24,522 nt of DNA, from positions 1 through 24,522 of the IMG/VR virus record IMGVR_UViG_3300048576_000531, one strand, 5' to 3'. Positions 1 to 22,592 of the stretch are shown here, one piece after another; the stretch's first letter is position 1, and every line of letters begins with the position of its first letter. The notes under the pieces were generated by a model. It was not told the DNA's origin and did no database searches. It worked only from the letters and a program-made list of their open reading frames with translations. This DNA is from a virus. Its lineage: Duplodnaviria > Caudoviricetes. A program made the position numbers and the translations under genes.

Positions 1-546
1 TTATTTTTCATTAACAAAGTAAGTTTTTATTGTCTGCTGAATCTCTTTTATATCATCCTTATTCAACTTCAAAAACGGCCTTGCCGGAATTGTAATTGTG
101 TGAGCTTTAAAAGTAAAACCCTGTCCGGGAGCGCCCTTTCCTTTTTTGAACCGTCCTTTTTTATCCCCCTTTTTGTACCGGGCGCGATTAAAAGTTTCGC
201 TTCTTGCGGCCATAGTAATTTTACCGCCTTCCTGCAAAATACGGGCGTAAACTTTGTTTGTTCCCGCAATGGATTCATTATTATCGAAGCGGGTGGATAT
301 TGAACGCAACAAGTTTCCCTTACGGATTAACATTCCGGAAGTATATCCTTTTCTGGATTTATCCTTAAGGGTAGATTTGGCAAGCTGCGGCCAGCCGCCC
401 AATCTTTTTCCTTCAGTCTCGAAATTTTTCTGAACCGCGTTATACATTATTTGAGCGATTTCTCTCATCAGCGGCTTTCGCTCTTTCATTTTACGGAGCA
501 TCGCCCCAATGGTTCTATTAAGAACAACTTTATTCTCATCATCCAT
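1..546 (-). CDS. Phage virion morphogenesis protein (Mu gpG / P2 gpS-like)
   Basis: 181 aa with NFETEG..GWPQLAKST, LIRKGNLLRSI, GTNKVYARILQEGG and C-terminal IPARPFL motifs. It follows MuF, as in Mu. Confidence 0.88.
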   Translation of the reverse strand: MDDENKVVLNRTIGAMLRKMKERKPLMREIAQIMYNAVQKNFETEGKRLGGWPQLAKSTLKDKSRKGYTSGMLIRKGNLLRSISTRFDNNESIAGTNKVYARILQEGGKITMAARSETFNRARYKKGDKKGRFKKGKGAPGQGFTFKAHTITIPARPFLKLNKDDIKEIQQTIKTYFVNEK

Positions 547-575
547 TTGATTTATTTTTTATTTATTGTTATTAT
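547..575 (+). promoter_or_regulatory. Sigma70-type promoter antisense to the packaging operon
   Basis: -35 TTGATT (547-552), 17-nt spacer, extended -10 TG (567-568), then TATTAT (570-575). The predicted +1 at ~581-582 coincides with the first base of the long RNA stem. The region is AT-rich, so a chance match is possible. Confidence 0.7.
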
Positions 576-581
576 TGCGGT

Positions 582-705
582 GAAGATTTAACACAGACTG
601 ATAGCAGGAAATTTTCGGCGCGCCTGCGGCATTATCTGCTCTTAGCAAGCATGAAATGGTATGGTGGGGAGTAGCCGGCCACCCGGTCTGATGTTAAATC
701 TTTCC
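582..705 (+). ncRNA. Candidate structured small RNA, four-way junction (cloverleaf topology)
   Basis: P1 582-600/684-703 (19 bp, bulged A691, G-U pairs at 599/685 and 582/703). P2 GCAGG 604-608/CCTGC 623-627. P3 630-640/648-658 with 7-nt loop CTTAGCA. P4 GGTGG 663-667/CCACC 679-683, abutting P1. A promoter lies upstream and T-rich sequence downstream. Confidence 0.7.
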
Positions 706-1932
706 TTTTATAAGTTTATATTTAGCTTTATCTTGCAAATTCAAAGCCGGGACTCTTAACGCAGTATCGATATAATTAACAATCCCTTTCTGTTTAAGCT
801 TATAATTAACAGTAGCGACAAATTTAGCTTTTTCGTTTCCAAGAGAATAAACGTAAAGGATATTACTATTTGCTTCCTGAAATAAAACTGCTTCTGGATT
901 ATTAACCAACTTTGGTAGATTTTTATAATCTTCAGTAGAAAGAGCTGTGCCTCGTGTTTTATGGATTCCTCTGTCTGCGTGAATCAATTGTTTATCGCTA
1001 AAAACTATAACGCCGGTATTAGGCACAATTCCTTTTTCTTTAAGAAAATTATACACATCATCATCAAGAAAACCGACGGTTTTAGTGTCGCCGGTCAAAG
1101 GTTTCTCTCTTGCAAGGACGCTATCCACCCAATCTTCAAAACCCTGCTGCCATTCGTCCGAATTTACTACATTTGAGATTATATCAGATTTGAGCTTTGC
1201 ATCCTTAAGCCCTTCCACTTTATTCCAGAAAGAAACATCAACTCCGTAATTAGTAGCTCCCGGATTATAAGCCCATTCTTGCGGCGGCAATTCTTTTTCC
1301 GGAGGCAAAGCGTTTTCAGCCTTAAGCCCCAGCTTTACTAAATCGCTTGAAGAGAGCGCAATAACGTAACATCGGCATCCCCAATCATTAGGGGGGTAAT
1401 AAATTTGCCAGAAAGGATGGTCATATCGGTATACTTTATTATTAAGCGCGGCATGTTCGGGCCGGATATTATCATCCATTATCCCTTTATATTGCCAATA
1501 GGGGCGGTTATCAACATTTAAGATAAGCTCTTTGTACCGGCCAACAGAATATGCAACATTCATGTTGGTCTCATAAATAGTAAGCAGTCTTCTTGGACTT
1601 CCAAGTTGAACTTCCTTAGCTTGACCTGTTTTGGGGTCGGTCATTTCCTTTTTTCCCCACCAGCCTTTCGTTATTAAAGTCGGCGTTAAATCTCTCTGGA
1701 ATTGTTTAAATGTAATTCCGTCAGTAAGGCTTTTCAGGCAGGAGTCTTTAATATCCCTTAGAATGTCAACGTTCATAGCTTTTGCAATCGTAAAGGATTT
1801 GTTATGCGCATCCCGCCATACGTCGCGCCAGTCAAAGGATATTTCATATCCTTTGGAGTCTAAATACTTCACTCCATTTTCAGGCGCAAGACTGAATAAG
1901 TACTGTAGGTTAATATTATTTGTTTCCGGCAT
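694..1932 (-). CDS. MuF (Mu gp30/gpF) head morphogenesis protein with C-terminal putative BECR-fold nuclease (PBECR/MuF_C-like) extension
   Basis: MuF domain motifs: FTIAKAMNVDIL, GWWG, RRLLTIYETNM, PYWQY..IMDDNIRPEH, YPPNDWGCRC. An extra ~130-aa C-terminal domain carries LIHADRGIH...EDYKNLPKLVNNPEAV...YIDTA. ATG at 1932 was chosen; GTG at 1938 is the alternative. The C-terminal domain call is less certain than the MuF call. Confidence 0.85.
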   Translation of the reverse strand: MPETNNINLQYLFSLAPENGVKYLDSKGYEISFDWRDVWRDAHNKSFTIAKAMNVDILRDIKDSCLKSLTDGITFKQFQRDLTPTLITKGWWGKKEMTDPKTGQAKEVQLGSPRRLLTIYETNMNVAYSVGRYKELILNVDNRPYWQYKGIMDDNIRPEHAALNNKVYRYDHPFWQIYYPPNDWGCRCYVIALSSSDLVKLGLKAENALPPEKELPPQEWAYNPGATNYGVDVSFWNKVEGLKDAKLKSDIISNVVNSDEWQQGFEDWVDSVLAREKPLTGDTKTVGFLDDDVYNFLKEKGIVPNTGVIVFSDKQLIHADRGIHKTRGTALSTEDYKNLPKLVNNPEAVLFQEANSNILYVYSLGNEKAKFVATVNYKLKQKGIVNYIDTALRVPALNLQDKAKYKLIKGKI

Positions 1933-3415
1933 TAACACGCCCTAAAAGTTCACTGTAGAAAAGCGCTTTTTCAAGGAGATTTTGCAACTGTGTTGTATTC
2001 ATTTTCGGATAAGTCTTAGAAAGCTTTTGGGAAACTTCATTAAAGTTACTTGAATTATGAACAAGGTCAATTACCGGCTTAAGAGTTTGCTCAATTTGTA
2101 GCTGCAGAAGCTTAGCTGGAAGTTTCGAAACAGATTCGCTGATAACATTAGCTTCTTCAGCCTCAGAAAAATTCCCGGGCGAAACCGGAAGGCTGTCGTT
2201 TTGAGCATCAACGATTTCAATTTCATCATCTTCAAAACCGTATGTCCGCTGAAAATATTCCTTGGTAAATTTCACGCCGGTTTCCCTGAGCGTTTTGTCC
2301 CGTGTCGCAATGTCTAAATCAACGTCCTCTTTTTCGTACATAATAAATTCCGGTTGTTCTGAAGAGCCGAAATTTATCTCGCTGATGAAGCCAATTATTG
2401 TATTGATTATGCCGGTCACAATTTGCATGTCAGATTGCGCAAGAGCGTCCGCCACGCCCTGATGCGTCTTTGACGCGGAGAATGAGCCTTTATTTTGAAG
2501 CTCTGTCGTAAGAGTCTCGTTAAGGACGGCCTTTGAAATTTCAGTATTACAAAATTCAGCAAGCCCCCTGAATATATCAGCTGAAGCTCCCTTGCCTGCG
2601 GGTTCTTTAATATCTACGCTTGAGTCATCAGGTATGACGGCCACTGCGTCCTGAATCATATCTTCAAGCGAATCTAATAAGTTATCTTTATCCTTTGAGT
2701 CCGCGCCGCGGGGTAGTTTGCCAATCACCCAGGGTATTCCAAACTTTTCGGTAAAAGTAACCCAAAATTTCATGCCCCCTTTTTTGAAGGCAAGAGGCCA
2801 AAAACAGCGCGATAATATACGGTCGCCGTAAGGATTATCATAACTTGGTTTATGCTGGGCCACACAAAATTTGTAAGGATAACCGGACAGGTCAATTCCG
2901 TTGACGGGATTGTCCTTTGTTTTAAAGCGTAATTCGTTATTGTTACCGAATACAAACCATTCCTGCGGTTTTGCTTGTATTTTAGAAGGAAGCGTAAGAG
3001 AGCCGTCGCTTTGCCAGGTAATTTCTATTGTTTGAAAACCAAACAATACGGCGTCAAGTATCTCGTTAATAAGGTTATGCATATTTATTTTTTTGAATAA
3101 TGCCGTAATAACCTTTGCTTCGCGGCTTTTCGCTTTACCGCGGTCAATTTCCCAAATTAGTTTCAATACATTACTCTTGCGTTGTTCTATCACGCTGGAG
3201 ACATGCGCGTCAACAAGAATGTCGCGGTAAATCCTTATGTCCCGTCCTTGTTTCCTCAGAATGGGATCAGGGTCGGGAAGGTACTCAAAAAAATTCCCGT
3301 AGTAATAAGAGGAATTTTCGCGTAAAGCCACTTCAGTAAACAAACTGTTGTTTCTGCGTTCGGCAAATGAAAGAAAAGAGCCGTCAGGAAGCCAAAGTCC
3401 ATCATTAGTCATCAT
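1916..3415 (-). CDS. Portal protein (Mu gp29 / DUF935 family)
   Basis: 499 aa with DAHVSSVIEQRK, ILDAVLFGFQTIEITW, YDNPYG, FTEKFGIP, CNTEISKAVL.ETLTT. Lies between terminase and MuF. Confidence 0.92.
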   Translation of the reverse strand: MMTNDGLWLPDGSFLSFAERRNNSLFTEVALRENSSYYYGNFFEYLPDPDPILRKQGRDIRIYRDILVDAHVSSVIEQRKSNVLKLIWEIDRGKAKSREAKVITALFKKINMHNLINEILDAVLFGFQTIEITWQSDGSLTLPSKIQAKPQEWFVFGNNNELRFKTKDNPVNGIDLSGYPYKFCVAQHKPSYDNPYGDRILSRCFWPLAFKKGGMKFWVTFTEKFGIPWVIGKLPRGADSKDKDNLLDSLEDMIQDAVAVIPDDSSVDIKEPAGKGASADIFRGLAEFCNTEISKAVLNETLTTELQNKGSFSASKTHQGVADALAQSDMQIVTGIINTIIGFISEINFGSSEQPEFIMYEKEDVDLDIATRDKTLRETGVKFTKEYFQRTYGFEDDEIEIVDAQNDSLPVSPGNFSEAEEANVISESVSKLPAKLLQLQIEQTLKPVIDLVHNSSNFNEVSQKLSKTYPKMNTTQLQNLLEKALFYSELLGRVNAGNK

Positions 3416-5305: not shown

Positions 5306-5547
5306 AAGCCCCAGTCGTCTTTGATTTTAGCGATTTTCGCTGTAATATCGCGAGCCTGAATTTGCAGGTCGCGAAAATCCTTAACCATAACAAAAGTTTT
5401 TTCCAACTCCAAATCAAGAAATTCAGAAAAAGGGTCAAGGAGCTCTCTTATCTGGATGAGATACGCCTCAGCTTTCATGTTGATAGTTTCGTACTGTTTC
5501 TCTAAGTCGGCAAGGCGCCCCTTTGCCTTTAGTAATTCGCCACTCAT
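5302..5547 (-). CDS. Hypothetical coiled-coil phage protein
   Basis: 81-aa helical, charged ORF with 4-nt overlaps with both neighbours, consistent with translational coupling. Confidence 0.7.
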   Translation of the reverse strand: MSGELLKAKGRLADLEKQYETINMKAEAYLIQIRELLDPFSEFLDLELEKTFVMVKDFRDLQIQARDITAKIAKIKDDWGL

Positions 5548-5777
5548 TTCTTTGCCTCGTTTTTATTGTTGTAGTCAACTTTTATTTCGAGACGGGTTAA
5601 AATACCGGTTAACAATTCCTTGTATTTCACATCGTCCTCCATCAGTTTAAAAATCTGCGTCAGCTGATCTTTAGACTGTTTTTGAAACATTTTCATTGTG
5701 TAATACCAGATAACAAAAAGTATGGTTGGCATACCTCCATTGTTCAGCAGCTTGAGCAGTTCGACGCTTAAATCCAT
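5544..5777 (-). CDS. Small membrane protein, holin-like (one TM plus coiled coil)
   Basis: 77 aa with hydrophobic GGMPTILFVIWYYTM followed by a charged helix. GAGG SD-like sequence upstream. First gene of the leftward arm. Confidence 0.55.
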   Translation of the reverse strand: MDLSVELLKLLNNGGMPTILFVIWYYTMKMFQKQSKDQLTQIFKLMEDDVKYKELLTGILTRLEIKVDYNNKNEAKK

Positions 5778-5955
5778 GCGAGCCTCGTGTGTTAATAAGT
5801 ATAAAATGGTTGGGAAATCTAATCAAACAAGAAGGTCAGTTGGTAATAAATGGGTTAGTAAACGGTTTGTTTGAGAGGCTGATTAACAATAGTTAGTTTG
5901 GCATCATCAAAATTGATTTGTTAAAATAATTCAAGAAATAACAATAAGCAAATTT
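5778..5955. promoter_or_regulatory. Divergent promoter region between packaging and capsid/tail operons
   Basis: 178-bp AT-rich gap between head-to-head genes, with imperfect repeats GGTCAGTTGG (5834), GGTTAGTA (5853), GGTTTGTTTG (5864) and AGTTAGTTTG (5891). Exact promoter boxes were not resolved. Confidence 0.55.
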
Positions 5956-7047
5956 ATGAAGTGGTTTGAAATTTTTAAGGCAGGTACTCATACTGATTCA
6001 TCAGGAGTTGAAAGGAAATATACCGAGAAAGATCTGGATACAATGGTTTCTAAGTATAATCCTTCCGAGCATGAGGCGCCGTTGGTCATAGGACATCCGA
6101 AAACAAACGACCCCGCGTATGGCTGGGTCGAAAAAATAAAAAGAGTCGGCGACCGGCTTCTTGCTTTACCGAAACAAGTCGTCCCTGAATTTGAAGAAAT
6201 GGTCGAAAAGGGAATGTTTAAAAAGATTTCAATGAGCCATTACCCCAATATGACACTACGGCATGTGGGTTTTCTTGGAGCCGTTCCACCCGCGATTAAA
6301 GGGCTTAAGGATATAGAATTTAACGAAGGAGAAAACGAAATAGTAATTGAGTTTTCGGAAAACTACAGAATAAATTCGATTGGCCGGGTTTTCCAAAACC
6401 TGCGCGATTGGCTTATAGAAAAATTTGGTATGGAAGTAGCTGACCAGGTGGCCAGTCAATATGTAATTGATGATTTGAAACAAAATGTGCCGGAAGCTGA
6501 AGGTTTGCCGGATTTTGGTGAAAATAATAATCCCGGAGAGGAAATGGATAATAATGAACTTCAAAAAGAATTGGCGGAATTAAAAACAAAAGTTGCCGAA
6601 TATTCGGAGGCTGTAAAAACAAAAGATGCCGAAAATGCTTTATTAAAGAAACAATTGGCGGACACTCAGACGGCCGAGAGAAAAAAAGATTATACGAGCT
6701 TCTGCGAAAAGCTGATTAAGGAAGGAAGGTTGCTGCCGGCCAATAAAGATTCAGTTATGCAGAATCTTGAAGCGGCCTGGCAGAGCGGAGCCGAGGTCAA
6801 TTATGCTGAAAGTGGCGAAACAAAAACAATTTCCGCAGTTGATAATTTGAAACGTCTTTTGTCCGCAATGCCTGTTAGTATTGATTTTCAAGAAATCGCG
6901 ACAAAGGAAGCGGCCGGAGGCCAGCAATCAGAAAACGAACCTGAAACGCTGGCAAAAAAAGCCCGCGAATATCGCGATAAACAGAAAGGACAGGGGTATG
7001 AAATCTCCTTTACTGAAGCTGTTAATCACGTAAAAGAAAAAAAATAA
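5956..7047 (+). CDS. Prohead protease with C-terminal scaffold (Mu gpI/Z-like organisation)
   Basis: WFEIFKAGTH, HEAPLVIGHP...PAYGWV, KKISMS, LRHVGFLGAVPPAIKGL, followed by a coiled-coil C-terminal half ending ISFTEAVNHV. Confidence 0.88.
   Translation: MKWFEIFKAGTHTDSSGVERKYTEKDLDTMVSKYNPSEHEAPLVIGHPKTNDPAYGWVEKIKRVGDRLLALPKQVVPEFEEMVEKGMFKKISMSHYPNMTLRHVGFLGAVPPAIKGLKDIEFNEGENEIVIEFSENYRINSIGRVFQNLRDWLIEKFGMEVADQVASQYVIDDLKQNVPEAEGLPDFGENNNPGEEMDNNELQKELAELKTKVAEYSEAVKTKDAENALLKKQLADTQTAERKKDYTSFCEKLIKEGRLLPANKDSVMQNLEAAWQSGAEVNYAESGETKTISAVDNLKRLLSAMPVSIDFQEIATKEAAGGQQSENEPETLAKKAREYRDKQKGQGYEISFTEAVNHVKEKK
6544..7047 (+). CDS. Putative nested in-frame scaffold protein (internal start)
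   Basis: GGAGAGG at 6535-6541 directly before in-frame ATG 6544 (codon 197), at the start of the coiled coil. Parallels Mu gpZ inside gpI. Confidence 0.6.
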   Translation: MDNNELQKELAELKTKVAEYSEAVKTKDAENALLKKQLADTQTAERKKDYTSFCEKLIKEGRLLPANKDSVMQNLEAAWQSGAEVNYAESGETKTISAVDNLKRLLSAMPVSIDFQEIATKEAAGGQQSENEPETLAKKAREYRDKQKGQGYEISFTEAVNHVKEKK

Positions 7048-16500: not shown

Positions 16501-16788
16501 CGCCTCATTAACAGTAGCGCTGTTATGGCAAGAAGAATTAATGACTTCGTATTCGATAATGTAATCCCCGCCTATATTAGCGCAAATGACTATAACGGAA
16601 ATAGTCCAATAAGTGGTTCGCATGTCAGCGGAAATGTTGAACTCCTTGGTGAAATACGAACAATGAATAAATATTTGCGAAAACAGACGGAAACTCCCCC
16701 CAAAATCAGACTGGAAGTGGGGAGCGACTTTGCCACGAAAATGTATAGAATGGGAGCGGCCACCATGCGGAAGGAAAGCCTGTCATGA
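13543..16788 (+). CDS. Tail tape measure protein
   Basis: 1081 aa with tape-measure domain (FEVLLGS...KTPYQF...GKLQGQDLLQLINAG), hydrophobic central region, long coiled coil, and C-terminal GPGTETSDSIPAWLSKNESII motif. Confidence 0.95.
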   Translation: MNDEVKLKVSVDGRAGEIALEQIFNKFNRLFEIAGRAKESIETSLSNMGNVVSGLNQGIELAEKIIAVLSKPVSLAIDFEQAQVSFEVLLGSASAAKDKIAELKEDSAKTPYQFADLQQATKVMLNFGITAGQVRPLLMMLGDIAGGDSQKLSSLALVMGQVSSAGKLQGQDLLQLINAGFNPLQEISRTTNKSMGELRREMEAGKISYDMVTGAFKSATGEGGRFHNMMEKQSHTLGGLISTVKDYIDQGLVKLANSGLFDVIKQQIEAISKYYTENEKTIDEFLNIFGTAIGLTAQLIVENVKNIMAVFSSVWEYKDIILGIASAVAILTAAINTDVIALKLMYAWDALVAAGKTVMTVVTNGLTIAQAALNVVMNMSPIGWILTTIGLVVTVLTVVIGRTIGWGKAFEYLKAGLLIAWDYMKGFGNFVIQFATGLTQLLTLPYQVMYRTAVEMFSKIGSMMKKLVTGDFSGLWEDIKSGFVTGFNDTVKSTINSFQSAFNSFDGLGDKAKQRWADAGKEEQKKSETKSNANAQKQDSTNNNKDSGPWKEDKAAIDKLEAEKKQKEAQAKDSIENELELQQKLLDIDRQYDLLKVKYEKEHENERTSARAKINADYDAKQAELNKKKREALQKERKEELDAAWELRSKELQYFEATDLEMLETKKAYLETVRGLYKQGTKEYLAAQREISNIDFDILIENQRQRKTQQTNSREINTNSKRLKLTKSGNEQELEKFDSKVEYDKEIEELQKKYDKDEITSEDYFKGRENAETAHQQRLLEIKTKYYDNWLGRLANLSRAELDAAKQIIDNIGDVFGKIGNIVGQNAKDEADSTKASQKDKIEADREKALSYARTQQQKDKINKEYDAKEKKMEDEADKRARDKAADWFAIQKAASITSAIISTYEGANKTIAQGGFWGIALSIATIAAGLANVAVIAAQPLPKYSKGIIGINGPGTETSDSIPAWLSKNESIINADSTRAASPVLRLINSSAVMARRINDFVFDNVIPAYISANDYNGNSPISGSHVSGNVELLGEIRTMNKYLRKQTETPPKIRLEVGSDFATKMYRMGAATMRKESLS

Positions 16789-19700
16789 TTATTAGAACGC
16801 TTATCCGCGAATATGACTATCCTGAGAATGTAGTTAATATAACTACTGGCAGCAATATTCTTCAAGGCACAGGAACTAAGTTTTCTTTATTGAAAATTGG
16901 GAGCTTGGTCGAAATAGACAGTTATGGATTTGCGGGAAGAGTAATTTCAATTGAATCTGATAATCAACTTACTCTTGACAGAGCTCTGGATTCGACGCTT
17001 GAAAATAAAAACTGGTGGATTGATATTACAGGCTATCTTCTCCAAATATCCGGACGCTCAAGGAAAGTTGAATCTGATAATGCCGGAGAAGCCGGAGCAA
17101 TTACATTCGATAACCTCGAATTGCAATATTACTTTGGTGAAGGCCTGACTCATGACAATACTTTCATTGAAAACCCTGTTCCGTCTTTTTTTAATAATAT
17201 CAGCTCTTCAAAGAGGTTGTTGATAAAATTAAAGGTTGCCACTTGGGATTTTAACCCCGAAGGGGTTTTTGTGGTAACTAATAATTACGAACAGCTGGTT
17301 AACGAAGCTGCATTGTCTTTGCTTGTTAATTACAAAACAAATCAGGTACGTCAGATATATGAGGGCGTGATTGACTTTTCAGCTATTACGTATCCTTCTT
17401 ATCCGGATGGTGAAAGCGAGTTTTATAACTCTGTCAAATTTAGAGTTTTTGATAAATTAAGTGCAATATCGCTTTTGTCGAATATTCTTCCCAGACAACA
17501 TGATCTTTTATCCCCCCTCTTAACTGGAGCCACAATTGATAGGATAGAATTCCTAAAACATTGGGATAATACTTCATTTAGTTTTAAATATCTCAAAGCA
17601 GGTACTTCAAGTAGTTATTCACCCCAAATTACTGATGATAATAATACTCCAAATCTTGGTGATATTCTGCAAATGAATATGTTGCATACACAAGAGGAAG
17701 ATTCAGACAAATTTGCCCTTCTTACATTTAAGTATTTAAAAGTAGTGTCTCTTATAGATCCAACACTTAATAGAGTATATTATGATTGCATTACTAATGA
17801 ATTAGATTATTTCCAAGGGACAACAAGTCAGAATAAAAGCGGAAATCCAAGCCCTCTGATACGGAATGCAGCATTAAAATGGTACAATAATTTATTTTAT
17901 AATGAAGATATTTACATAAAACAATGGAACAATAATAAAAGCTTAAGAGGGCCTTCCGGGCCCTATGAAACGGGTTTTATTAATGTGGCCGGTTATGAAA
18001 TTGTAGCATTAGATGGAATAAAAATTCTAAAAGCTATCATTAAACAAGTGTGGAATGATGTAAAAGTTGTCAATAAGCTATATGACAAGAATGGGGAATT
18101 AATTACGGAATTCAGACTACCTTTAAACTATATTTTCCAACTTCTGGATGAAAAACTATTTGGTAAAGAAATCCTTGATGCTTTAATATTTTTATCAAAT
18201 AGCATGAATTGCTACCTATATTTCAATCAAGAGAGTGAACTCGTTCTTCAAAACGTACAATCATTGGATGACAGTAACCCAAGTCTTGATAAAGCAATTC
18301 CTGTAGAGCTATTATCAAAAATGGAAAAAGAAGAATTTTGGGACAAGCTAATAGATGCCGCAGAAGTAAAGGTCAATAGTTGGATTAAAGAAAGTGAGGA
18401 TGGGCAAGATTATCTCACGGGAGAAGGATACGCTTACAAGAGGCAAGGTATTAAACCGCGTAACCAACAAACGTCAGAAGTATTTATAGATGTAAATTCA
18501 CTATTAGACTTGGGAATAACGGTCAATGAAGATGGATCACTTAACGATCCAACGGTTGAAAATAACGACCAATCTGCCATCTTAAATCGTATAGCTGATT
18601 ATAAGGCGGCAACCAGAATAGATTTTTACGGCAAGCGACATATAAGTTATAATCTTACTTTTTGCAAAATGACCTCGCAAATGTTAGACTGGGATATGTT
18701 GACAACATTTACTTTTATCAAGCAAAAATGCTTCGAAGGAGATAAAAATAACGGCAGATATTTTATCCAGAAATTAGACTTTAACGACGCGGCCAATACT
18801 GTTGACATTAAACTTGTTTCAATAAGCAGAATTGATTATGACGAAAGCCAGGTATTAATAGGAACCAAGCCGGATAACACACAAAAAGTTATAATAAAAA
18901 GCAGTAATGATTCAAGTTATATTCCAAGCAAAACTATCTATGCTAATTACCAGATTAAGAAAACCGACGGGATTATATATTGTAATGCGTCAGGCAATGA
19001 TATTTCTATTGAATTACCAAATGTAAGTAATAAAAACGCGGAATATTTGCTTAAACGAATTGATAGGTCGTTTAATAAAATAGTAATAAACGGCGCCCTG
19101 GGAAGTTATTCAAATCCCGAATTGGCGTATGCCGGCCATGAGATACGTTTCAAAAGTAATGGTTATCATTGGGTGGTACTCAATGATGTTAATGAAGTAA
19201 GATTAACGACAAAGCTCATTACTGAGGACTATACGGTAAAATTAACAGATAAAATGCTACTATGCGATGCGTCGACACAAGATATTACTATTTCATTTCC
19301 TGAGCTTGAAGGAAGCAAAGATTATGAAGTATTGATTCGTAAAGTCGATAACTCCGAGCATAAGGTAATTTTACAGGCGACCATTGATAATTTAAATAAC
19401 CCTGAAATGTATTATTGTAATGAGGAAAAGCGGGTAAAATCAAATGGAGCACTTTGGCAAACTATTAATAATATTGACTTACACAGGTCATCAAGAGTAG
19501 ACATTTCTTCTGATTATACATTAAAGCTTGGAGATAAAGCAATATATGTGGATGCTACTTCAGGCAATATCAATCTCTTTTTACCAACCCCGGCACTTGC
19601 CAAAAATTATGAATTCTACATTACGAAAACAGATTCTTCAGATAATGAAGTCATCATCAATGAGATGCTAAACGGGGTGTCGTTTCCAACATTGTCCTGT

Positions 19701-22592
19701 CGCAATCAAGACTTTATAATTCGCTCAGATGGCGCGCAGTGGTGCTTCGTTAATGGCTATTCAACATTTACAATAATAACTGAATCGCCTCTTGATAATC
19801 GTACGCCGGCATACATCCATGAACGCATATATGATAAAACGCGAAAAGTATGGTGGCAGGCTAAAGGCTCTGGGAAAAGTGATTGGGCGCGTATTACCAA
19901 TAGTGAAAAAAAATATACCGAGGGGAATAATCCAAACGGGCGTGTTACCCCGGATTATATCGGCCAACCATGCAATGTTTTATTTAATAATAAAAGCGAA
20001 GTATGGTATAGTAAAAGTTTACTTGATAATTCATGGCATAAATACATCGGGTATGAAGGTAATGATGTAGTAATAGAGCCTCTCGCTGCAGATGGTAAAG
20101 TGATAATCAGAAAACCGGGTGGCGACCCAACAAAAGTTTTGCAAATATCCTTTGAGGGCGACCTATATAAAATAGTCAGCGACGGTCTGAAAGTTAAGAA
20201 CTTGAAAGACGAAGAGGGCAATATAATAGCTGCAATTGAACTTGCAGATTATGAAGACAGACAACCCGGAGATATGTTTTATCTGGGAGAATCTGGTAAA
20301 TATAAAAGACTTGCGGCTCAGGATGGGTATTTAAAACATACCGGCGGGCAGTATGTATTTTCGGAAGGGACTGGGGATACTGGCGATGTATACTGGACGG
20401 ATGTCAAAGACAGGCCAGATAAATTAAGTGAATTTACGAATGATACTAATTACATTTCATCAGAATTTCTTATCGCGAATAGTTACATAAGACAAGGGAG
20501 CACGCCAGAGACGAGTTATTTGACTGAGGCGTTGGCCAATTCTACGTATGCCCCCGCCGCTTCACTTAACGGATTAGCTTCAGAAGAGTGGGTAAATGCT
20601 CAAGGATATTTAAAAAATGCGGATTTTTCAAATTATGCCTTAAAATCTGATGTCAGTTCGTTGCAACAATGGGCCAATAGCAATTTTGCCGCTCTCGATT
20701 CAATTCAAACGCTCGCAAGTGAGGAATGGGTTAATGCTCAGTATTATATTAAACAAGGGACAACACCTGAAACCCATTACTTGACAGAGAAACAAACATC
20801 TGACGCTTTTGTTAAAGTGGCGGATATAGCAGGTTATCCAAAAACCGAATGGGTTCTTTCACAAGGTTTTCTTAAACAAGGAACAACGCCGGAAACGCAA
20901 TATCCAACAGTTCAATATGTCAATAATACTTTTGTGACGCCTGATTTATTGACTGGCCTGGCAACAGAATATTGGGTCAACCAGCAAGGTTATATCAAAC
21001 AAGGCAACACTCCGGAAACGACCTACGTCACAGCTTCTTATGTAAACGCAAATTTCGTAACGCCTGATTTATTGACCGGGCTGGCAACAGAATATTGGGT
21101 CAACCAGCAAGGTTTTATTAAACAAGGTAGCACTCCAGAGACTACTTACGTAACGGCTTGGTACGTAAATTATCATTTTGTTACGCCTGACCTACTGGAA
21201 GGAGTGGCTTATCAGAGTTGGGTTAATTCCCAGAATTTCCTTAAACAAGGTTCAACCCCTGAAGCACAATATCCGACTGTTCAATATGTCAATAATACTT
21301 TTGTCACCCCGGATTTATTAAATGGGGTTGCCTATCAGAGTTGGGTCAATTCTCAGAATTTCCTTAAACAAGGTTCGACCCCCGAAACACAATATCCAAC
21401 CGTTCAATATGTCAACAATACTTTTGTGACGCCTGATTTATTGACTGGCCTGGCAACAGAATATTGGGTCAGCCAACAAGGTTTTATCAAGCAAGGCAAC
21501 ACTCCGGAAACGACCTACGTCACAGCTTCTTATGTAAACGCAAATTTCGTAACGCCTGATTTATTGACTGGGCTGGCAACAGAATATTGGGTTAACCAGC
21601 AAGGTTTTATCAAGCAAGGCAATACTCCGGAAACGACCTACGTCACAGCTTCTTATGTAAACACAAATTTCGTAACGCCTGATTTATTGACAGGGCTGGC
21701 AACAGAATATTGGGTTAGCCAACAATGTTTTCTTAAACAAGGAATCACCCCCGAAACACAATATCCAACCGTTCATTATGTCAACAATACTTTTGTAACG
21801 CCGGATTTATTAAATGGGGTTGCTTATCAGAGTTGGGTCAATTCTCAAAATTTTATAAAACAGGGAACGACTCCGGAAACAACTTTCGTTACAGCTCAAT
21901 ATGTAAATAGTAATTTCGTTACACCGGATTTATTAAATGGGGTTGCCTATCAGAGTTGGGTCAATTCTCAGAATTTCCTTAAACAAGGTTCAACCCCTGA
22001 AGCACAATATCCGACCGTTCAATATGTCAATAATACTTTTGTCACCCCGGATTTATTAAGCGGAGTGGCTTATCAAAACTGGGTTAATTCTCAGAATTTC
22101 CTTAAACAAGGTTCAACCCCTGAAACACAATATCCGACCGTTCAATATGTCAACAATACTTTTGTCACCCCGGATTTGCTTGAAGGAGTTGCATACCAAA
22201 ATTGGGTCAACCAACAAAGTTTTCTTAAACAAGGAATCACCCCCGAAACACAATATCCAACAGTTCAATATGTCAACAATACTTTTGTCACCCCGGATTT
22301 GCTTGAAGGAGTTGCATACCAAAATTGGGTCAACCAACAAGGTTTTCTTAAACAAGGAATCACCCCCGAAACGCAATATCCAACAGTCCAATATGTCAAT
22401 AATACTTTTGTAACGCCGGATTTATTAAGCGGAGTAGCTTATCAAAACTGGGTGATTAGCAACTATTCCAATAAAACTCATCAGCATTCTGATTTTTCAG
22501 GCACAATTTCATTCTATTCCACAGATGGCGCTCTTATAGACTTAAACATCGAAAATGGAATAACCTCATTCTTAATAACACAAAAAATTTAA
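16785..22592 (+). CDS. Giant tail tip/fibre protein (hub-like N-terminus, three beta-domain repeats, 41-aa tandem repeats)
   Basis: 1935 aa with ATGA overlap with tape measure. Three DASxxxIxIxLP...KxDxSxNxVxI...SxGxxW domains, two TPxYI..W motifs, 13 FVTPDLL repeats and a terminal HQH motif. Confidence 0.8.
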   Translation: MIIRTLIREYDYPENVVNITTGSNILQGTGTKFSLLKIGSLVEIDSYGFAGRVISIESDNQLTLDRALDSTLENKNWWIDITGYLLQISGRSRKVESDNAGEAGAITFDNLELQYYFGEGLTHDNTFIENPVPSFFNNISSSKRLLIKLKVATWDFNPEGVFVVTNNYEQLVNEAALSLLVNYKTNQVRQIYEGVIDFSAITYPSYPDGESEFYNSVKFRVFDKLSAISLLSNILPRQHDLLSPLLTGATIDRIEFLKHWDNTSFSFKYLKAGTSSSYSPQITDDNNTPNLGDILQMNMLHTQEEDSDKFALLTFKYLKVVSLIDPTLNRVYYDCITNELDYFQGTTSQNKSGNPSPLIRNAALKWYNNLFYNEDIYIKQWNNNKSLRGPSGPYETGFINVAGYEIVALDGIKILKAIIKQVWNDVKVVNKLYDKNGELITEFRLPLNYIFQLLDEKLFGKEILDALIFLSNSMNCYLYFNQESELVLQNVQSLDDSNPSLDKAIPVELLSKMEKEEFWDKLIDAAEVKVNSWIKESEDGQDYLTGEGYAYKRQGIKPRNQQTSEVFIDVNSLLDLGITVNEDGSLNDPTVENNDQSAILNRIADYKAATRIDFYGKRHISYNLTFCKMTSQMLDWDMLTTFTFIKQKCFEGDKNNGRYFIQKLDFNDAANTVDIKLVSISRIDYDESQVLIGTKPDNTQKVIIKSSNDSSYIPSKTIYANYQIKKTDGIIYCNASGNDISIELPNVSNKNAEYLLKRIDRSFNKIVINGALGSYSNPELAYAGHEIRFKSNGYHWVVLNDVNEVRLTTKLITEDYTVKLTDKMLLCDASTQDITISFPELEGSKDYEVLIRKVDNSEHKVILQATIDNLNNPEMYYCNEEKRVKSNGALWQTINNIDLHRSSRVDISSDYTLKLGDKAIYVDATSGNINLFLPTPALAKNYEFYITKTDSSDNEVIINEMLNGVSFPTLSCRNQDFIIRSDGAQWCFVNGYSTFTIITESPLDNRTPAYIHERIYDKTRKVWWQAKGSGKSDWARITNSEKKYTEGNNPNGRVTPDYIGQPCNVLFNNKSEVWYSKSLLDNSWHKYIGYEGNDVVIEPLAADGKVIIRKPGGDPTKVLQISFEGDLYKIVSDGLKVKNLKDEEGNIIAAIELADYEDRQPGDMFYLGESGKYKRLAAQDGYLKHTGGQYVFSEGTGDTGDVYWTDVKDRPDKLSEFTNDTNYISSEFLIANSYIRQGSTPETSYLTEALANSTYAPAASLNGLASEEWVNAQGYLKNADFSNYALKSDVSSLQQWANSNFAALDSIQTLASEEWVNAQYYIKQGTTPETHYLTEKQTSDAFVKVADIAGYPKTEWVLSQGFLKQGTTPETQYPTVQYVNNTFVTPDLLTGLATEYWVNQQGYIKQGNTPETTYVTASYVNANFVTPDLLTGLATEYWVNQQGFIKQGSTPETTYVTAWYVNYHFVTPDLLEGVAYQSWVNSQNFLKQGSTPEAQYPTVQYVNNTFVTPDLLNGVAYQSWVNSQNFLKQGSTPETQYPTVQYVNNTFVTPDLLTGLATEYWVSQQGFIKQGNTPETTYVTASYVNANFVTPDLLTGLATEYWVNQQGFIKQGNTPETTYVTASYVNTNFVTPDLLTGLATEYWVSQQCFLKQGITPETQYPTVHYVNNTFVTPDLLNGVAYQSWVNSQNFIKQGTTPETTFVTAQYVNSNFVTPDLLNGVAYQSWVNSQNFLKQGSTPEAQYPTVQYVNNTFVTPDLLSGVAYQNWVNSQNFLKQGSTPETQYPTVQYVNNTFVTPDLLEGVAYQNWVNQQSFLKQGITPETQYPTVQYVNNTFVTPDLLEGVAYQNWVNQQGFLKQGITPETQYPTVQYVNNTFVTPDLLSGVAYQNWVISNYSNKTHQHSDFSGTISFYSTDGALIDLNIENGITSFLITQKI
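18930..19750 (+). repeat. Three diverged ~95-aa domain repeats in the tail protein
   Basis: NYQIKKTDGIIYCNASGNDISIELP / DYTVKLTDKMLLCDASTQDITISFP / DYTLKLGDKAIYVDATSGNINLFLP, ending respectively SNGYHW / SNGALW / SDGAQW. Confidence 0.85.
20838..22455 (+). repeat. Coding tandem repeat, 13 x 123 bp (41 aa)
   Basis: FVTPDLL codons recur from 20931 to 22407 (12 intervals of 123 bp). More degenerate copies lie upstream from ~20480. Confidence 0.95.

Follow-up and report, generated by a model that had tools for sequence, protein, structure and literature searches.

Our analysis suggests that the Mu-like temperate phage described here encodes, in place of an immunity protein, a tRNA-mimic RNA antitoxin that would counter a predicted tRNase borne on the virion; on the sequence comparisons below we regard this as probable. 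The presence of the RNA goes with an intact predicted active site in the C-terminal domain of the minor head protein MuF, and not merely with the domain itself. A broader proposal, towards which we lean more cautiously, is that virion polymorphic toxins with tRNA mimics as their immunity genes are widespread in Mu-like temperate phages: a BECR tRNase would be delivered from the capsid, the elbow of tRNA would be copied by a separately transcribed RNA, one class using a canonical T-loop and the other loop-loop base pairs, and Mu itself would be a relic that has lost both parts. The module is real, widespread and apparently undescribed. Neither a published description nor a specific Rfam family was found in the open literature; subscription journals and the supplements of Weinberg 2017 and bioRxiv may hold the motif.

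The MuF locus and the RNA opposite it

The window, by which we mean the whole 24,522-nt stretch analyzed, comes from a Mu-like temperate phage. Its minus strand carries genes for terminase, portal, MuF and a gpG-like protein; from 5956 on, genes for protease, capsid and tail lie on the plus strand (Table 1). Positions 5544-5956 form a divergence point between the packaging genes and the capsid and tail genes, which are thus not one-directional; a 77-aa ORF there (5544-5777) has a weak Imm30 match below the cut-off. The MuF ORF spans 694-1938 (ATG at 1932, stop 694-696), lies downstream of the portal and terminase genes in the same operon, and encodes a full-length gpF orthologue carrying the Phage_Mu_F domain.

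Table 1. Features at the MuF-gpG junction of the window
Feature	Position	Strand	Basis
Mu gpG-like neck/tail-completion gene, next in head operon	1..546	-	Pfam Phage_tail_S E 2.2e-22; PHROG 26
Predicted sigma-70 promoter: TTGATT, 17 nt, TG, TATTAT; start expected near 582	547..575	+	Pattern match and -10 boxes in homologues
tRNA-shaped RNA, class II; long acceptor-like closing stem 582-600 / 684-703	582..703	+	Folding, covariance model, both-side pair changes
D-like arm, stem 604-608 / 623-627; loop 616-619 pairs with T-like loop	604..627	+	
Variable middle arm at anticodon-arm position, 7-nt loop 641-647; no conservation across homologues	628..662	+	
T-like arm, stem 663-667 / 679-683, stacked directly on closing stem; loop 674-677 pairs with D-like loop	663..683	+	
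MuF (Mu gpF/gp30 orthologue), minor head protein, 412 aa	694..1932	-	Pfam Phage_Mu_F E 4e-23; PHROG 220 E 3e-97; 34% identity to Mu gp30, residues 1-400
MuF-C/PBECR-type predicted RNase domain, residues 257-412	697..1164	-	Sub-threshold Pfam MuF_C, Atlas neighbours, structure model, residue conservation
Predicted pocket residues His318 (979-981), His324 (961-963), Lys370 (823-825), Lys380, Thr390 (763-765)		-	Residue conservation
Mu-type portal, upstream, same operon as MuF	1916..3415	-	Pfam Portal_Mu E 1.3e-96

The original prediction gave MuF a C-terminal extension of ~130 aa; the extension is present, but its size is nearer ~155 aa. The domain matches Pfam MuF_C at E 0.0037 (17.8 bits, against a cut-off of 27.6). 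Its Atlas neighbours are all MuF_C/PBECR domains (MuF_C, PBECR2 and PBECR3), with a recognition score just below 2300, the reliable level. It can be aligned to the C-terminal domain of Mu at E 5e-4, and 349 relatives came up at E<=0.001 in a search without profiles. The best fold matches of its structure model (pLDDT 97) are the toxins BrnT, colicin D, RelE, HigB and CdiA, which are BECR RNases, at weak Z-scores of 4.4-5.2; a Foldseek search of the PDB returned nothing at E<=0.001. His318 falls in model helix 57-63 and Thr390 in the last long strand, in agreement with the PBECR site described as a His residue borne by the N-terminal helix with a C-terminal Thr/Ser (Iyer et al. 2017, PMC5512222). 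The accessible text of that paper calls the MuF-C domain of Mu itself inactive and suggests that PBECRs may spare host tRNA, leaning to mRNA or CRISPR RNA as targets. PBECRs have since been placed in the colicin-like BECR group (bioRxiv 10.64898/2026.08.28.747851), and because characterized members of that group mostly cut tRNA, we infer that the MuF C-terminal domain is an active tRNase.

As anticipated from the sequence alone, no immunity-sized ORF was found between 547 and 693, that is, between the MuF stop at 694 and the next gene (1-546): the sole ORF wholly inside this 147-bp gap is a 29-aa frame with a TTG start, so that the small immunity ORF of a MuF toxin-immunity pair is missing. 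The absence is no evidence by itself, because Mu and D3112, which have a decayed site, likewise lack an immunity ORF.

The gap had also been proposed to hold a folded element on the opposite strand, with a stem overlapping the MuF stop codon, and this proposal was upheld. A covariance model built only from three other phages (L139, L095 and L212) matched the window at 593-691 on the plus strand with 54.1 bits (E 1.8e-12), and its next-best match in the whole window scored 11.4 bits. The closing stem extends ~10 nt into the end of the MuF gene, across its stop codon and final codons. Positions 578-705 fold better than shuffles on both strands (z of -2.8 on the plus and -3.4 on the minus strand), so the strand is not given by folding alone; two G-U pairs in the 19-bp closing stem on the plus strand would be A-C if read on the minus strand. 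Across five class II RNAs (see below), 98% of cells are paired and 9 of 21 pairs have changed on both sides, and covariation as high as that in the class I and class II helices was reached in 0-1 of 500 shuffles. A search of positions 1-2500 against Rfam gave nothing except a chance Histone3 match. No carrier of the RNA was listed among sequencing runs; the single run labeled as RNA, and flagged as probably DNA, contributed two 151-nt pieces that are uninformative on expression. The window thus contains a real conserved element on the plus strand, which is likely to be transcribed.

The predicted promoter on this strand stood less firmly. The TTGATT-17-TATTAT arrangement is present, but such a pattern alone is at chance level (6 in 2.5 kb, vs 6.1 in shuffles), and its support comes from the homologues. 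Of 40 class I RNAs, 35 have a -10 box with at least 5/6 matches no more than 30 nt upstream, as do 10 of 21 RNAs of class II, vs 8.3 and 3.4 in shuffles, and none of 17 loci that have lost the histidine has one at the matching distance.

In layout the window RNA resembles a tRNA, having a four-way cloverleaf, a T arm stacked on the acceptor stem and a D-loop/T-loop contact. It has neither the canonical T-loop nor the conserved anticodon loop of a tRNA and is recognized as one neither by ARAGORN nor by Rfam, and the model of the overtly tRNA-like class I RNAs described below scores it at E 9, which is not significant; because that model misses it, the likeness to tRNA is one of layout and position and does not draw on sequence homology. 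A generic cloverleaf parser was used for coordinates only, because GC-rich coding DNA also triggers it. The tRNA-like layout, which was not part of the original prediction, favors a decoy or antitoxin reading.

Two classes of RNA among MuF loci

Behind MuF tails that bear the histidine, two kinds of RNA occur on the opposite strand. Class I RNAs, which have a canonical T arm and a D loop, are overtly tRNA-like and share the place and orientation of the window RNA. Their anticodon arm varies in length and loop even between close relatives and is often a tetraloop hairpin, and they have no conserved CCA; 17 of 21 pairs have changed on both sides among 16 sequences. In class II RNAs the parts run in the order of closing stem, 2-3-nt linker, D-like arm, variable arm, and T-like arm stacked on the closing stem, which is also the order in class I; the loops are different. 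The two classes alternate among close relatives of the protein, as in L095 (class II) beside L111, L113, L096 and L099 (class I). Their layout, position, strand and alternation point to equivalence, although sequence homology between them is not evident.

Canonical tRNA has a contact between the D-loop and the T-loop. In class II, 18 of 22 parsed RNAs allow at least 4 Watson-Crick pairs between the D-like and the T-like loop, vs 23 of 384 cross-group combinations, and the observed total of loop complementarity was reached in 0 of 2000 loop shuffles. These figures refer to the 22 of 39 candidates that parsed sensibly with a parser blind to loop pairing, in six groups defined by eye. Within a 13-sequence subfamily the loop-loop helix is paired in all cells, and 2 of its 5 pairs have changed on both sides. 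The class II loop-loop pairing may thus be a base-paired stand-in for the tRNA contact.

General tRNA tools see little of this family. ARAGORN calls a tRNA at 6 of 57 loci, and the Rfam tRNA score was just reached, as a borderline result, at 2 of 20, with nothing relevant at 13 further loci. The ARAGORN labels, at L175, L243, L229, L257, L195 and L149, are tRNA-Pyl, -Val, -Ala, -Lys or unknown, and genomes may list these RNAs as odd tRNAs. In phage B3 (ORF34; L324:1193-1291) and phage CAM-P21 (L326:1174-1266), hypothetical proteins of 32 and 30 aa are annotated exactly over the antisense RNA. These two ORFs are probably spurious and could be mistaken for immunity genes.

To place the window in context, we compared 322 further MuF loci, covering MuF-borne copies of the domain at the F-G junction; a search for copies of the domain outside MuF, with their surrounding DNA, yielded nothing usable. 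Together with the window, 288 had a stop and 250 nt beyond it (the counts leave out 35 loci without one or the other), and 252 of these were nonredundant: 85 with a window-like tail, 72 short MuFs, 91 with other long tails, and 4 with broken MuF frames, which were likewise left out of the counts. At E<0.001 the class I model gave 42 matches, all antisense to MuF, spread over 40 of 84 loci, of which 16 were seeds; at E<0.1 it matched none of the 72 short MuFs, in line with the expectation that the structure would not follow MuFs lacking the domain, and none of the 91 other tails. The class II model is narrow, matching among 70 loci only its 3 seeds and L001.

Co-occurrence of RNA and domain, which the original prediction had put forward as a check, was found in a sharper form, with the RNA tracking the predicted active site. 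Among the 85 domains, the models alone place an RNA at 44 of 64 loci bearing His318 vs 1 of 21 lacking it. Adding 22 manual calls (7 parsed and 15 by eye) raises the counts to 63 of 64 vs 4 of 21, the 63 including 7 parser calls and 12 calls by eye. Blind folding separates the groups weakly (z<=-2 in 23 of 68 vs 2 of 17). Four or five of the 5 pocket residues are present at 61 of 67 RNA-bearing loci vs 0 of 18 RNA-less loci, where the maximum is 3; in RNA-less lineages, His318, His324, Lys370 and Lys380 decay while structural core residues persist. On a tree built by a quick method, with long-branch warnings, there are 11 label changes, at least 9 of them forced by well-supported branches, and at least 9 independent losses of the active site, that of Mu included, coincide with loss of the RNA. 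Independent pairs gave 6-8 in the same direction and, in nearly all pairings, 0 in the opposite one (sign test, median p 0.03-0.008). The gap itself follows the same division: gpG starts -14 to +8 nt from the MuF stop in 16 of 17 loci without histidine and RNA, and of the 64 short MuFs whose gpG was located, none has a gap of 85-190 nt.

Ten annotated phage loci fetched later gave a similar picture. Three lack the histidine and have no gap; of the 7 that bear it, 4 have class I matches, B3 and TJ1 are class II-like by eye, and Ralstonia phage YO088 has no RNA. YO088 and the related prophage L345 have kept His318 and lost Lys370 and Lys380. The two Ralstonia prophage loci that count as exceptions on this ground, L328 and L345, have no adjacent RNA. 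A further exception, L223, has kept the histidine and has no clear RNA. Four loci have an RNA without His318, three of them keeping the second histidine. In L059, L319, L321 and L347, Gly or Ser occupies the His318 position, Lys follows two residues on, the second histidine is kept and a T-arm RNA is present; these tails perhaps have an alternative active site. Two further exceptions are only apparent: at L190:3174-3515 and L008:2925-3722, ORFs of 113 aa and 265 aa have been inserted between MuF and the RNA, which is kept ~400 and ~900 nt away.

Possible functions of the RNA

In the model that we favor, the RNA would be transcribed from its own promoter in the gap, independently of the late operon, and because of that independence would be made in the lysogen. 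MuF with its C-terminal tRNase would be packaged and delivered by the virion, and the RNA would bind the tRNase domain as a decoy inhibitor, mimicking the tRNA elbow and acceptor arm. Protection would extend to the lysogen, or to a cell in which MuF is being made late in infection; a naive cell that receives the virion would have none until RNA is made. Once the enzyme had died, the RNA would be dispensable.

The alternative that we take most seriously, though we think it unlikely, is that the RNA is a working partner of the MuF nuclease and serves it as a cofactor, as a guide or as a dedicated substrate; it might, for instance, be co-packaged, or be processed by the nuclease into a tRNA decoy that weakens the host's tRNA-cutting defenses. 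Such a role would explain the joint loss of RNA and active site equally well. It also draws support from the hypervariable middle arm, from the tandem RNA copies behind single MuF genes (three at L149:3151-3459 and two at L194:3078-3281), and from the proposal in the accessible text of PMC5512222 that MuF-C binds RNA, with host-defense RNAs as targets. However, the promoter stands apart from the late operon and points the other way, an arrangement that would fit expression in the lysogen better than co-packaging; the variable arm is short, self-paired and often a tetraloop hairpin, offering no spacer-like single strand; and a partner role leaves an active RNase without a visible immunity factor.

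Other roles appear considerably less probable. It is improbable that the RNA silences leaky MuF in the lysogen in a type I-like manner, by cis-antisense action or convergent transcription: it is always antisense and adjoins the 3' end of MuF, and in the window its closing stem reaches the stop codon, but the overlap is ~10 nt or none, the RNA has outlasted the two insertions mentioned above, and antisense action needs no conserved T-loop or loop-loop pairing. That the RNAs are real or degenerate phage tRNA genes, resupplying translation after host tRNA is cut, we consider highly improbable, since close relatives differ in the length and loop of the anticodon arm, which is often a tetraloop, no conserved CCA follows the stem and the RNA of the window receives no tRNA call, despite the ARAGORN calls and borderline Rfam scores at a few other loci. 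The minus strand folds about equally well, as a structure acting in the sense mRNA (as terminator, stabilizer or control of gpG translation), or an incidental one, might do; this is the least probable reading of all, because the models match the antisense strand only, the T-loop and -10 box read correctly on that strand only, and the structure has been lost without loss of gpG. A tRNA-mimic antitoxin would be the most economical reading, covering the copied elbow and acceptor arm without a fixed anticodon, the separate expression and the joint loss.

If that reading is correct, RNA immunity joins the polymorphic toxins, a tRNA mimic can serve as an antitoxin, and the C-terminal domain of Mu gpF, which has long lacked an explanation, is what remains of a toxin-RNA pair that has died. 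The PBECR substrate question would also become directly testable, because the shape of the RNA points to tRNA and phage B3, which is in culture and infects a laboratory host, carries both parts. Attention would further be drawn to an undescribed RNA family that is misannotated as odd tRNAs or tiny hypothetical proteins.

Related systems and other MuF tails

The closest protein parallels are the MuF polymorphic toxins (Jamet et al. 2017, PMC5576092), which likewise carry a predicted toxin C-terminal to a MuF head domain and are encoded in temperate-phage packaging operons. In the accessible account a protein immunity gene is usual, whereas the MuF gene here is not followed by one. The PBECR/MuF-C domains of Iyer et al. 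belong to the same domain clade as ours and share the helix histidine and C-terminal Thr/Ser, but the accessible text of that paper (PMC5512222) does not mention an immunity factor or an associated RNA. The Minerva preprint mentions neither MuF nor a nuclease.

The proposed module would work in the manner of a type III toxin-antitoxin pair. The type III systems ToxIN, CptIN and TenpIN, as described in the accessible text of PMC12283969, also combine a protein RNase with a folded RNA that contains a pseudoknot and is proposed to bind the protein directly, with tandem copies at some loci, and the AbiF RNA antitoxins would be comparable. In type III the antitoxin lies upstream in the same operon, with a terminator between, whereas the window RNA is downstream, antisense and behind its own predicted promoter. 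In contrast to the type III tandem repeats, the window has a single copy, and tandem copies occur only at L149 and L194. The loop-loop pairing of the window RNA is also a pseudoknot, of a different kind from the type III H-type knot, and in the MuF module the RNA is a cloverleaf and the BECR-type toxin domain is part of a virion protein.

The allo-tRNAs found near toxin-antitoxin loci (Mukai et al., PMC5389517) are similarly nontranslating tRNA-like RNAs beside toxin genes, but they keep anticodons and have 8/4 or 9/3 cloverleaves, and the accessible text shows no specific toxin partner. The orphan RNA motifs DUF3800, drum and skipping-rope (Weinberg et al. 2017, PMC5737381) resemble the present case in having several unrelated folds per protein family, on either strand. 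They accompany another protein, and neither the window nor any of 33 related loci gave such a match in Rfam 15.

Convergent structured elements, recognized by eye, also follow MuFs whose tails are of other BECR types (PBECR2, PBECR3 and an unnamed group, the last being the only one that was aligned). Examples are L004, L098, L120, L283, L322, L037, L088 and others, which have their own elements just past the MuF stop, in several other folds and many behind a -10 box; elements of the PBECR2, PBECR3 and related tails had no Rfam match. Several non-BECR tails are followed directly by small ORFs, as protein immunity would predict.

Two further observations concern neighboring genes. In the window, a 1935-aa ORF at 16785-22592 has no Pfam match, and one 13-mer repeated within it at 21248, 21986 and 22109 suggests internal repeats. 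Among the short-MuF loci, L200, L205, L214, L226, L256 and ~25 more have a conserved ORF of ~270 aa between MuF and gpG.
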